From Eledone cirrhosa (taxonomy: Eukaryota), in contig OZ024742.1 in the NCBI GenBank assembly GCA_964016885.1, positions 235,662,001 through 235,726,000 of the forward strand: a stretch of DNA of 64,000 bases, given 5' to 3'. Within the stretch, counting starts at the first letter, position 1. Each line of letters starts with the position of its first letter. Of this stretch, positions 15,150-59,762 are shown piece by piece. The notes beneath the pieces are model-generated. The model saw nothing but the letters and a program-made list of their open reading frames with translations, had not been told where the DNA came from and did not search any database. The translations under genes were made by a program, and so were the position numbers.

Positions 15150-15300
15150 GAAATAGCAACACAATCGGTACAGTATATGGAAGGAATATATTAGGTCAAC
15201 GCTTGAAATAGCAGGAAGAGAGGGTTTTGGCGTTTCGGATGCTAGTCCTTCATCAGAAAAAAGAATGAGAAATAAGATAGATTAAAGGGACGGGCAGGGG
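15150..15300 (-). mobile_element. PLE terminal (pLTR) fragment with minimal hammerhead-like motif at 15225-15260
   Basis: Homologous to 27150-27300 and 36345-36475; minus strand reads TTTT-CTGATGA-A-GGA-ctagca-TCC-GAAA-CGCC-AAAA. Confidence 0.7.
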
Positions 15301-15865
15301 TGTTGTTAGATCTCCATCGTCTCTCACGAGTGCTCCAGTTGTTTCAACAACCGGTTCCTGAAATGAACATGTAAATGGCAGAGCACTCCACAGACACGTG
15401 CACCTTTATGTTGCAGCGAACATTTTTATTCTAGTTCTTGTTCAGGACGAGCCAGCATACAGCTCTGTATGCAGATGAAGCTAATCGGCCCATGCATATA
15501 GGCGTCAAAACTATATGTTTGCACCTATATTGAGTTCCAGCAGAAAGCGAGATAAAGGGAAACATTACCTTGATAACGACCATCAGTCAAAAATGGCCGT
15601 CGGTGATTTCTTTCTTGCTTCTGCTGGAACCCACTACGAGGCTCCCCACCATCAGCTTCCAAAATTCATAGCTAAAGGCTTTCAAATGTTTATTCGTAAA
15701 CATACCGTATATCATTAGATATACAAAATACACATACTATTCTACGAAAATTATAAAACATTTACAGAACTTCAGTATATACAATGTTTGTAACATTTTT
15801 CTTTGGAGCATATATGAAGGGTTTGTAGGGTCTTCCTAGTCTGGAATACGTGTACTACATACAAT

Positions 15866-16060
15866 CGTCTGACTGTACTGGAGCGTTTGCTCTTTCGCCT
15901 TTTGTGGAAGCGACGCTCTCCAATGGCTAGGCGGTCCATCTGCTGTCAACATCTGCTACGCGGAGGACTGGGCATGCCGTGGGAAATGATGCGTTGAGAT
16001 TACGACATCTCTAGATTTTCCGAGACGTTGAACATGCGTTGTCACCTTTCGCTAGGGTCG
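15866..16060 (+). pseudogene. L1/Tx1-type LINE ORF2 fragment (post-RT region)
   Basis: Manual translation LERLLFRLLWKRRSPMARRSICCQHLLRGGLGMPW matches the F.F.W...GGLG.P motif of L1/Tx1 ORF2. Confidence 0.6.
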
Positions 16061-16664
16061 TTTTTCCTCAGCTCGGCCCTTTGTCAAATTGTGAAGCGGT
16101 ATATGTATATGTACAAAATATTTTTTTGACTAAGTGATAGATTTCCTTACTCTGGAGTTTCACCGCCTGTGTACTCACAGAATCACCAGGCAAGATGATA
16201 TGTATATATATATATATATATATATATATATATATATATATAGAGAGAGATATATATGTATATATCTATATATATATATATATGTAAATATGATAATAAT
16301 GGAGCTGCGGCGCTACAAATGGGTTACATATGAAAAAGTTTGTCCTCATCAGTGGCCTTCCAACCGTCGTAGGCATTTCGTCGCATTAAAGGCCATATAC
16401 CTCAGGTTGGTGCGAGCAACGGGTAAAAAAAGTCGTTGGGACACGTAAATAAAGGGGACGCTAGGGTATATATATATATATATATATATATATATATATA
16501 ATTATATACACACACACACACATATATATATATGTGTGTTGTGTATATATATATATATATATATATATATATATATATATATATATATATATATATATAT
16601 ATATGTATATATATATATATTTATATATATATATATATATGTATATATATATATATATATTTAA

Positions 16665-16765
16665 TTCGTTTTTCAAGATTTTTTATCTGAAAACGTGTAT
16701 TGAGGCAGAGATTGTTATACTTTGGGAGGGTCATGCTGCCAATAAAAACACACGCACCTGTTGTT
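16665..16765. repeat. (TA)n-embedded dispersed repeat family; other copies/fragments at ~33505-33560, 36890-37235, 38055-38085, 49447-49597
   Basis: Shared ATTGTTATACTTTGGGAGGGTCATGCTGCCAATAAAAACACACGC block in both orientations, consistently beside (TA)n or AT-rich tracts. Confidence 0.8.
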
Positions 16766-56967: not shown

Positions 56968-57137
56968 GCAGCAGTAGCTGCAACAGAAACAATAGTAAAA
57001 GTAACAGCAGTAGCAACAGTAGCAGCAGCAACAACGGCAGCAATAGCAGCAGCAGTAACAGTAGCAGCAGCAACAACAATAGTAATAGCAGCAACAGTAG
57101 CAACAGTAAGAGCAGCAACAATAACAGCAGCAGTAGC
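56968..57137. repeat. Imperfect (AGC/AAC/AGT)n trinucleotide repeat
   Basis: Direct reading; similar tract at 53770-53885. Confidence 0.9.
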
Positions 57138-57612
57138 TAGGGTTAACCCAGCGACGGAATAGCATCCCATCCAGGTGGAAGTCGTACTGTCAAGGAAACT
57201 GAGATAAGCTCTGACCTGATGCTGAGCCTCTGGGTTTGGGGTATATTTTAATTTTAGCTAGGGTAGGCAGTGTGATTAAGGAGTTGATGTAGCAGAGATG
57301 AGGTTTCGGGTTCTGTCCCACTGTGTGGCACCATGGTCAAGTACCTTCTACTCCAGCCTTGAGAATAAAATCCTGGTTTACGGAAACTGTGTAGAGGGCC
57401 GTCGTATATGTATATACACTCGTAGACATACACACAGACACACACACAGACAGACACACAGACACACACACACACACACACACAGAGACACAGACACACA
57501 CACATACATACATAAACACACACACACATATATATATATATATACATACACACGTGCGTTCTCTCCGCTTCAATGTTTTTCCGTTTCTATTTTTCATTTA
57601 GCTCTCATTCTA

Positions 57613-57648
57613 TCTTCTGATGAAGGACTAACTTCCGAAACGTTAAGA
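57613..57648 (+). ncRNA. Minimal hammerhead ribozyme candidate with loop-less palindromic stem III
   Basis: TCTT-CTGATGA-A-GGA-ctaact-TCC-GAAA-CG-TT-AAGA; intact core; AACGTT palindrome. Confidence 0.7.
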
Positions 57649-59696
57649 CATTTTTCCTACTATATAAAGCATTAAACTAATATATATCTTCATTGTATCG
57701 TTTCCCTGTGTTATTTATTTGTTTACGTTGCGCGCATACACACACACACACACACACACACACACACACACACACACACACACACACACACACACACACA
57801 CACACACCCACAGAGGTTTACTATTTGCTTATGTCCGGTAACTTAGCGGTTCGACAAAATGAGGTCGATAGTTAAGTATTGGAGTCAATATGATAGGCTA
57901 AATCTCTTCAATGCGATGCTCCAGTATGGTCGCAGTCTAATGAATAAAAACACTAAAAACAATAAAAGAATATCTACATTGAATGTATCATAGTTTTTCA
58001 AATATACGCTGTTTTGGCCATAAATATCTATTAAGAGTTTAAAGGATTTCTTGGAACGAATGAGCTATTTTTTATAAACTAGGTTTCAATTTTTTGTTAT
58101 TTTTCTGTGTGTGTGTGTCATGGAATGTATTCTTCGTGGCTGGTCTAAATCTATCTGGAACTACACAACAAGATGTCTTGTTCTTCTGTCATTGTTAATT
58201 ACATATGTTGATGGAACCAGAAGCACGAATTATACATAGCTGGTTATATTTCTTCACCTTACCAACCAACCAACCAACTAACGTTTTTTTTCTTCTTCTA
58301 ATTTTATATCGAGTACACAGAGGCAAAATATCAGAACTTGTATTTACTGTCCGATAGGACATCTTGTAAACATGTCACACAAAACCCCCTCAGAAAAGGC
58401 AACGTGGCAAGACAGACAATTCGACAGCGGTGTCAGCTGTGAAAAGTATCAACCAACTATGAAGTCAACAAACTCTAATATAAAATTGTTCCCCTTCTCT
58501 CCCCTCTAATTCCTCGTCGTTTTCGTCCAGAAAGACGGGGGAAAATATAAAATATAAATACAGATGGAGAGAAAGAGAAAAAAGTAATTTTAAACCAATG
58601 TCTGTCAGGTTTAATAGTTAGGTGTCAGTAGAACTTCATTAATATGGCGTGGAAATCAGTTTGGAACTAATTAAAAGACAAAGGGCTGAAACTATTTTCG
58701 AATATTTACTAAAAAAAAAAAGATATGTATATAAACATTCACGCACATATACACACATACATATACATACATGTGTATATATACAAACGTATATATATAC
58801 ATACATACGTAGATAAACACACGTGGCCTCACATATACGGCCATGCTGATATAAACAGACAAACCAAGAGGATAGGAGTGATATAGAGAAACAGACAGTT
58901 GGATTGATACATGAGCAGTGAAGTCTAACTTCAAACAACAAACAGAATAATATATATCACTGGTTTGGTGAGGAGGGTAAGTGGAAACCCAGCAGCACAA
59001 AAGCAAGAGCTGGCAAAGGGCGGATGAACTCGACAGTGTCAACGGCCATCCACCTCAACTATGGGTTAAATAGCCTTACTAACTCGATATTGGCTAAGCG
59101 TGGTGAGTAAGGCTACACACCCGGACAATAACACATGTGATCCTCGTAACTATCCCGTTATTTTGCTTTGGCTTGTCTCTGGGCATATAACTGCGAGGAT
59201 GAGGTGGGTGCTATGTATGTGTAGCACTAGTACGTAACATTGCCATATTTATGTGCAGATGTCTCTTCCCAAGTTCCACAGCAGTGGATGAGTGGCAACT
59301 TGTACAGACTCCACCTGTTAGAAGCACATAGTCACATATCTACACGTGGGCGACTCGGGTCTTATCCTAACGTCGCTGCACTGTTAACCTGAACAGCAAC
59401 ATGCTTCAGCAGAGTCTTGAGTGTCAGAGCAGCCCTTTTTGGGGACACATTGCTCACCAATACCACATCGGAAGGTCCTAGAAAAAGGGACCTAAACAAA
59501 GCCTGTTCAGTCATCCAACTGGGCAGCAGCCTGCAGTTGTCGGTGGTTTATAATAGGGAATTCGTTGAAGAGATGGCTATCTTCTGTCAAGAAGTGGCAG
59601 TTATCTATATATATATATATATATATATATATATATATATATATATACAATATTAAATATTAAATAAATGGAAAACTATATTTATAAAACCATATT

Positions 59697-59762
59697 TATT
59701 TCATTATATATATTTCGGGGATATCATATTAACAATATGCTATGCCTTCATCAGACAAAATA
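59697..59762 (-). ncRNA. Hammerhead ribozyme candidate at the PLE 3' terminus
   Basis: Minus strand: TATTTTGT-CTGATGA-A-GG-catagcatatt-gtt-aatatgatatcc-CC-GAAA-TATATAT-A-ATGAAATA; 8-bp stem I with 2 GU pairs; palindromic ATATATAT. Confidence 0.72.

Follow-up and report, generated by a model that had tools for sequence, protein, structure and literature searches.

Hammerhead motifs with self-complementary stem III strands, mostly at truncated 3' ends of Penelope-like elements, in a 64-kb window of the Eledone cirrhosa genome

The window analyzed is a stretch of 64,000 nucleotides from the 3.0-Gb assembly of Eledone cirrhosa (GCA_964016885.1, contig OZ024742.1, forward-strand positions 235,662,001 to 235,726,000), with a GC content of 36% and many microsatellites. 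Minimal hammerhead ribozyme motifs are scattered through it. They are very probably the mostly 5'-truncated 3' ends of at least seven lineages of Penelope-like elements (PLEs), of which three are tied to genes and the rest are likely assignments. On the double-hammerhead dimer model proposed for minimal hammerheads in the pseudo-long terminal repeats (pLTRs) of metazoan PLEs (Cervera and De la Pena 2014, PMC4209133; also PMC6765202), these motifs would, with much the same confidence, be cut only as pairs of copies held together by self-complementary strands of stem III. The sites add members to a group described in 2014, the pLTR hammerheads of PLEs, and to the Hydra and Neptune/Nematis clades. 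An earlier sequence-only reading of the window had already proposed dimer-type hammerheads from several PLE or retrozyme-like lineages; the PLE part of this identification is borne out, with open reading frame (ORF) links for three families, and so is the dimer type, with stem III symmetry retained. No tandem retrozyme arrays were seen at the window sites.

That reading had described a dozen motifs in 45 kb, and all 12 sites do carry the sequence attributed to them, at or near the positions given. All five main sites have the CUGANGA box, the GAAA box and the UH cleavage site, as do two further ones (38516 and 29546). Among the five sites that had been called intact, those at 37025 and 42880 match their own families, but the other three have a weakened stem II. 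The motif at 37025–37069 (+) is a type I hammerhead of family C with a stem I of 5 bp, a stem II of 6 bp and the stem III strand AGGACU, which has a central G.A mismatch. It sits inside a pLTR fragment of about 280 bp from a young Neptune/Nematis-type PLE; 19 other copies, out of 41 genomic ones listed, share its sequence without a difference over 91 bases. In the AGGACT form (37025–37063), stem III GACU can pair with the stem I 5' strand AGUC, giving an inactive alternative fold as the predicted minimum free energy structure. The motif at 42880–42952 (+, site 42891) is a type I hammerhead of family D with a stem I of 11 bp, a C x C apposition at stem II position 4 and the stem III strand ATATATAT. 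It is 97–99% identical to its best copies, and its host fragment is 5'-truncated, with a short inverted copy, and lies beside a (TA)n tract.

The type I motif at 49870–49957 (+, site 49875) belongs to family B and contains a long stem II and ACAATTGT; the G found at position 10.1 in the family is replaced by U, and the resulting U x C apposition breaks the first stem II pair. The family A motif at 57613–57648 (+, site 57617) is a minimal hammerhead with ACGT and no stem III loop; its core is intact, and stem II forms three of the four pairs of its family. The type I motif at 59697–59762 (−, site 59754) belongs to family E, carries ATATATAT and lies at the 3' end of an inverted Hydra-clade PLE copy. 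Its stem II has an A x C apposition at 10.1/11.1, common to part of family E, and a C x C apposition at position 4.

Three sites absent from the sequence-only reading were added. The family G motif at 38461–38523 (−, site 38516) has an intact core, a stem I of 7 bp and the strand ACGCGTGT, which is self-complementary with two G.U pairs. The motif at 29470–29551 (−, site 29546) also has an intact core, with a long stem II, a stem I of 5 bp and the perfect palindrome ACCGCGGT. The third, at 33676–33723 (−, site 33720), is a family C relative (AGAACT) in which the base of stem II is mismatched.

All seven sites that had been described as mutated are indeed broken: a core base is lost in five, half of the motif is missing in one, and the boxes stand without stems in one. 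Three are family A copies, which have lost the cleavage-site U16.1 (15225–15260, −, site 15256), core U4 to C (27222–27257, −, site 27253) or core G12 to U (36352–36388, +, site 36357). An ACGT-type copy of a related subfamily with a GGGC/GCCC stem II (29893–29926, −, site 29923) has core A14 changed to C. Two belong to family B, one being a 3' half alone without CUGANGA (26005–26063, −, site 26017) and the other a decayed copy with its core boxes present and stems I and II lost (35993–36121, +, site 36005). The last (48404–48440, −, site 48434) belongs to family F (ACATGT), an old low-copy family, and shows core C3 changed to U and a decayed stem I. An Rfam scan of the window returned no hammerhead among the best 150 of 371 E-value matches, the microRNA matches being microsatellite-driven and below gathering. 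At the Rfam gathering score, no hammerhead family was found in six loci with representative motifs, where one tRNA was the sole match.

Families C and E show the typical layout of endonuclease-containing (EN+) PLEs, namely a single ORF with a reverse transcriptase (RT) followed C-terminally by a GIY-YIG endonuclease, flanking pLTRs, and inverted 5'-truncated copies. For family C, one locus (L150) contains a frame of 1,241 residues that has RT motifs and a GIY-YIG domain as well as a CX4CxxC linker. A hammerhead lies on either side of this frame, the distance between the two being 4,094 bp, and a partial copy in inverted orientation is found upstream. The Neptune/Nematis-type CX2-5CxxC linker between RT and endonuclease reads CIDKKCITC in family C and CSGSRCNTC in family A. 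In family A, a GIY-YIG domain is contiguous with the motif at three loci that share 86–95% DNA identity, the endonuclease part of the ORF being the part seen. A further PLE ORF (L352:2–1426, +) encodes RT, a CX4CxxC linker and GIY-YIG; the descriptor detected no hammerhead in the 2.2 kb downstream of it.

The family E ORF is present in the window as a 5'-truncated Hydra-clade PLE frame (61807–63381, +) with RT, a CxCx5C linker and GIY-YIG, whose 3' untranslated region (UTR) extends beyond the window to a twin hammerhead (L031:822). An inverted, 5'-truncated copy of the same element (59656–61894, −) is 97% identical to it over 2,244 bp. Near-full-length relatives have frames of 710–755 residues. 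Same-strand hammerheads lie on both sides of the ORF, about 3.8 kb apart, in five of the ten loci fetched for near-full-length ORFs, one about 0.2 kb upstream and the other 1.3–1.5 kb downstream. The endonuclease is 100% identical in the first 146 of 150 scored copies. The ORF at L351 carries the Hydra-clade marks KSDKT, RIRWR (RWR for RWK), CNCRDRSKC, CDLC and CKH, and by the motifs given in section 11 of Craig et al. (2021, PMC8557442) family E is assigned to the Hydra clade. The likeness extends to DKT, an RWK-like RWR, the CxCx5C linker, CxxC and CxH, and to (TA)n targets and a 3' hammerhead; unlike the Hydra PLEs in the consulted part of that work, family E has a long 3' UTR (1.3–1.5 kb) in an element of about 3.8 kb. 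A frame-broken remnant of another Hydra-type ORF (24831–25934, −; 35–52% identity) is also present in the window, and no hammerhead was found downstream of it. Additionally, copies of a young Hydra-type family (L051, L303 and L313) are 94–95% identical in DNA, with ORFs about 30% identical to that of the window; no 3' hammerhead was detected in this family.

The start of most copies lies about 20–170 bases upstream of the core; those of family A terminate in (TA)n or (CA)n. PLE insertions are characteristically 5'-truncated. Fixed-position samples of the genome contain further lineages with the stem III strands ACTAGT, ATGCAT and ACTAATTAGT, as well as odd-length strands (ACCGCCGGT, ACCTCTGGT and ACCACTGGT) that could fold as monomers.

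Motif frequency was compared with shuffled sequence, as the sequence-only reading had suggested, and lies far above it both in the window and in the samples. Two descriptors were used, each demanding the CUGANGA and GAAA boxes. The strict type I descriptor, with stems I and II of at least 4 bp each, matches the window twice (37030 and 38516), compared to a mean of 0.03 in 100 block shuffles, and matches 53 fixed-position samples of 10 kb 14 times, compared to 0.1 in shuffles. The relaxed descriptor, which tolerates a stem II mismatch and misses 57617 and 59754 with their weaker stem II, matches the window at five positions (37030, 42891, 49875, 38516 and 29546; mean 0.08 and maximum 2 in 200 shuffles). 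Outside the window it gives 45 matches in 63 such samples (630 kb) versus a mean of 0.67 in shuffles, or 4.6 per 64 kb. The window is therefore typical of the genome; a density of a dozen motifs in 45 kb is the genomic background, and a local cluster was rejected. Extrapolated from these 45 counts, in which inverted twins are counted twice, roughly 71 intact-core motifs per Mb, or about 200,000 genome-wide, are expected.

Genome-wide pattern searches gave 2,559 exact copies of a family A 32-mer, 66,006 matches for the D/E superfamily with a pattern that leaves stem II pairing free, and 16,940 for family C with a pattern holding just the final two letters of the CUGANGA box. Reversed-pattern controls gave zero for each, and the summed load is about 85,000 matches to the three patterns. 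Family F has three exact pattern matches. Eight near-identical family F copies spaced at 30–60 kb (L203–L210; C1:217.32–217.66 Mb) suggest a large tandem segmental duplication.

The sequence-only reading had noted that symmetry of stem III is kept while its sequence changes, and this holds up well, with compensatory variants TATATA, TGCGCA and TACGTA that extend even to the innermost pair. For the covariation analysis, each distinct stem II/III signature among 52 was represented once; eight family G rows and two short rows were left out to give 42 sequences of D/E type, so that the counts cover the D/E superfamily alone; pairing of stem I was demanded in the selection and stems II and III were free. 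Changes on both sides occur at 16 of 21 pairs, a level reached by none of 500 shuffles, and pairing drops to 31–53% in slid registers. The innermost stem III pair is formed in 40 of the 42 sequences (UA 23, UG 11, CG 6), and the second inner pair shows a compensatory AU/GC change. Since the innermost pair cannot form in a hairpin, pairing at this position fits an RNA–RNA duplex.

Inspection by eye of the six free middle letters in the first 100 of the 66,006 D/E matches, all from one chromosome end, gave TGCGCA 39 times, TATGTA 32 times and TATATA 22 times, with TACGTA and TACGCA twice each and TGTGCA, TATGCA and TAGGTA once each. Thus, 96 of the 100 are self-complementary (63 perfectly and 33 with G.U) and four are mismatched. 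For a monomer, folding stem III into a hairpin has a predicted cost of +1.9 to +6.0 kcal/mol, and with ACGT no hairpin can form. Predicted stem III self-duplexes, AGAACT apart, range from −1.7 kcal/mol (ACGT and AGGACT) to −14.1 kcal/mol (ACCGCGGT). The compensatory changes in stem III support the published dimer model.

Family C is different. Its AGGACT strand had been described as a near-palindrome, and it is symmetric around a central purine–purine mismatch, but it is not a decayed palindrome. The first 100 of the 16,940 family C matches, again read by eye, comprise 79 AGAACT, 20 AGGACT and one AGAGCT, with no perfect palindrome among them, and the interpretation of AGGACT as a mutated palindrome was rejected. 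Contigs of three other sequencing runs also contain the AGAACT variant, together with A>T at position 17.

Stem II of the D/E superfamily shows an additional conserved feature. Position 4 is unpaired in 40 of the 42 sequences while its flanks covary; positions 2, 3, 5, 6 and 7 are paired in 39–41 sequences, and positions 2, 3, 5 and 6 show 14–20 double changes. The apposed bases are CC in 52 of 75 and CU in 15 of 75. The mismatch is retained between lineages whose endonucleases are 34–46% identical, although shared descent alone could preserve it. Its distance from the core is four positions, the point at which the loop that docks on stem I starts in canonical hammerheads, and it might itself act as a docking site. 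No published description of a C–C stem II mismatch was found among the open-access texts listed, which do not include Lunse, Weinberg and Breaker (2017). It is conceivable, though on balance doubtful, that the D/E superfamily (66,006 matches, including sites 42891 and 59754) is an undescribed subtype in which stem I is long and AU-rich, the dimer helix III has 8 nt, and a long stem II keeps the mismatch in place of the loop–loop contact.

These features are largely those of known systems. As in the minimal hammerheads of PMC4209133, the topology is type I, helix III is missing or a very short palindrome, an extra base follows A9 (families A and C), and several consensus families coexist in one genome, mostly as solo truncated copies and with inverted pairs. 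Unlike there, the pattern matches number about 85,000 rather than about 2,000–9,000 per genome, and several families have stem III strands of 6–9 nt with long stems I and II; the present host is not covered in the consulted text of that paper. File S2 of PMC8557442, as far as consulted, lists varied self-complementary stem III strands, of which some are mismatched at the center, and includes one family from an octopus; its Hydra rows differ from the present families in lacking the 8-nt ATATATAT or ATGCGCAT strand and the C–C or C–U mismatch at stem II position 4. The palindromic short stem III also recalls the small PLE hammerheads of Lunse, Weinberg and Breaker (2017), variants of which cleave as dimers in a tandem layout (as cited in PMC6765202 and PMC6466107). 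No cephalopod hammerhead survey was found by title or opening of the abstract in open-access text, and Lunse 2017 and the supplements of Cervera 2014 may already show the present variants. What is added to a known kind is modest: the high load, and the mismatch in stem II.

Judging by published work, an RNA read across a tandem or full-length element would carry a pair of identical hammerheads separated by about 4 kb. The pair would swap strands of stem III, possibly helped by the protein of the element, and both hammerheads would cut after the NUH triplet. The symmetry of stem III would arise because each strand pairs with an identical copy, and the palindrome could drift freely under this constraint. 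Solo copies in the window lack a partner in cis; insertion into (TA)n or (CA)n tracts probably left them behind as inert by-products.

Several observations weigh against this interpretation. CpG decay could account in part for the changes at the innermost pair. The AGAACT self-duplex is predicted to be unfavorable (+2.4 kcal/mol), unlike all others, so that family C may not cleave as a simple RNA dimer. The assignment to PLEs is also uneven. Pfam recognized neither RT nor GIY-YIG, nor any other family, in either PLE ORF, so the PLE call rests on motifs, insertion structure and ESM Atlas neighbors; the latter include GIY-YIG and RVT_1 clusters for both ORFs, mostly on a minority of members. A PDB search with the PLE ORF gave no match. 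Family B is linked to an ORF by weak tblastn matches (E values of 1e-6 and 4e-3), and a candidate link at L094 and L303 was rejected, the ORF being a neighboring element that ends before the family B fragment. Family D shows homology to family E at an E value of 1e-12, and at one locus (L302) an ORF lies upstream of it, contiguity not confirmed; no ORF link was found for families F and G.

The strongest competing explanation, a real possibility though the less probable one, is that the motifs are protein-assisted ribozymes or serve, once folded, as a signal recognized by the PLE protein, with symmetry only loosely maintained. The prevalence of AGAACT in family C (about 79% of listed copies), with its unfavorable self-duplex, is in line with this, as is the A x C apposition at the first stem II pair in part of the young family E. 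In the consulted part of a study of an anole PLE (PMC11167929), cleavage was reported solely with added protein, no RNA-seq ends lay at the cut site, and the hammerhead was dispensable for insertion in vitro; protein assistance thus stays in play, especially for AGAACT. Conversely, CUGANGA, GAAA and U16.1 are kept across lineages with covarying stems (the descriptors having demanded these boxes), and the covariation of the inner stem III pairs fits an RNA–RNA duplex.

The sequence-only reading had further suggested that each palindrome is a private key, evolved to confine cleavage to partners of the same family. This is unlikely, although palindromes do differ among many lineages and most duplexes between classes have predicted energies several kcal/mol less favorable than those of self-duplexes. 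For example, ATATATAT x ATGCGCAT is predicted at +5.7 kcal/mol compared to −3.2 and −10.5 kcal/mol for the self-duplexes, and the switch between these two strands divides two Hydra-type lineages with endonucleases 34–46% identical. Any two different palindromes would, however, give unfavorable cross-class duplexes. A key should be private to its family, yet ATATATAT is not: of the nine stem II clusters with several members, six have it as their most frequent stem III strand, among them the window families of 42891 and 59754 and a lineage whose stem I differs (CTGC/GCAG). It occurs together with ATATGTAT within stem II clusters, and ATATATAT x ATATGTAT is predicted at −3.2 kcal/mol, at least as stable as either self-duplex (ATATGTAT, −2.2 kcal/mol). 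Family C was amplified to about 17,000 copies, and each of the 100 that were listed has A.A or G.A mismatched at the center of the strand. Moreover, full-length copies have a partner in cis, the element's own second pLTR 3.8–4.1 kb away; pairing with any identical partner would need symmetry, and tethering would pick that partner. Mutants of the anole hammerhead left insertion in vitro unaffected (PMC11167929), and the consulted rows of File S2 (PMC8557442) already tabulate family-to-family variation of self-complementary stem III strands in Hydra PLEs. No paper on cross-family stem III keys was found among the open-access matches listed. Partner exclusion would instead arise as a by-product of dimer pairing.

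An origin from non-autonomous non-LTR retrozymes, rather than from PLE ends, is more improbable still. Such retrozymes, of which the axolotl has 126,247 (PMC7229834, in the part consulted), share type I hammerheads, a weak helix III and very high copy number with the present motifs; most copies here are short (100–300 bp) and lack an ORF, and a 2026 preprint derives retrozymes from PLE pLTRs (bioRxiv 10.64898/2026.07.22.740005, in the part consulted). Retrozymes, however, form head-to-tail repeats of about 300 bp without an ORF, while the window sites are dispersed 3' fragments of autonomous PLEs with no head-to-tail hammerhead repeat among them. Paired copies are mostly inverted, with ragged 5' ends running into PLE ORFs, and ORF linkage excludes this origin for families A, C and E. 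Chance matches in AT- and microsatellite-rich sequence, to which the short core boxes and the resemblance of ATATATAT to the (TA)n tracts filling the window might have contributed, are refuted by the excess over shuffles, the empty reversed-pattern controls, and covariation exceeding all 500 shuffles and all slid registers.

Other repeats are also present in the window. Positions 1–12823 consist of a 32-bp satellite (about 404 copies, 91% matches) with a strong GC skew. About a dozen repeats resembling short interspersed elements (SINEs), 100–190 bp long and 85–95% alike, lie within 13653–54385 (for example 14972–15129, 23261–23435, 47213–47376 and 54196–54385); no hammerhead core was seen in them. 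A 369-bp direct repeat (54682–55050 and 56411–56779, 98.9% identical, at a spacing of 1.7 kb that holds no long ORF) is possibly a small LTR-type or PLE-like unit, and a 333-bp direct repeat (32662–32994 and 43102–43434) is 96% identical. Broken non-LTR retrotransposon-like frames are found at 19066–19850 (−) and 34669–35049 (−); the former has a sub-threshold zf-RVT match, and a near-intact relative is present at another locus (L032).

As hammerheads of this kind are already known, the present finding chiefly adds examples. It also offers material for the question of what PLE hammerheads do, and of whether cutting takes place in RNA dimers or with the protein of the element. The E. cirrhosa genome supplies two young families whose ORFs are intact and whose layout naturally includes two hammerheads, together with natural compensatory variants of the dimer helix, G.A and A.A versions of the central mismatch, and a conserved stem II mismatch. 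If the D/E superfamily does prove to be a distinct subtype, this genome would rank with the animal genomes richest in hammerheads, at a density of about one intact-core motif per 14 kb, and its many co-resident lineages would form a panel for the study of dimer partner choice.

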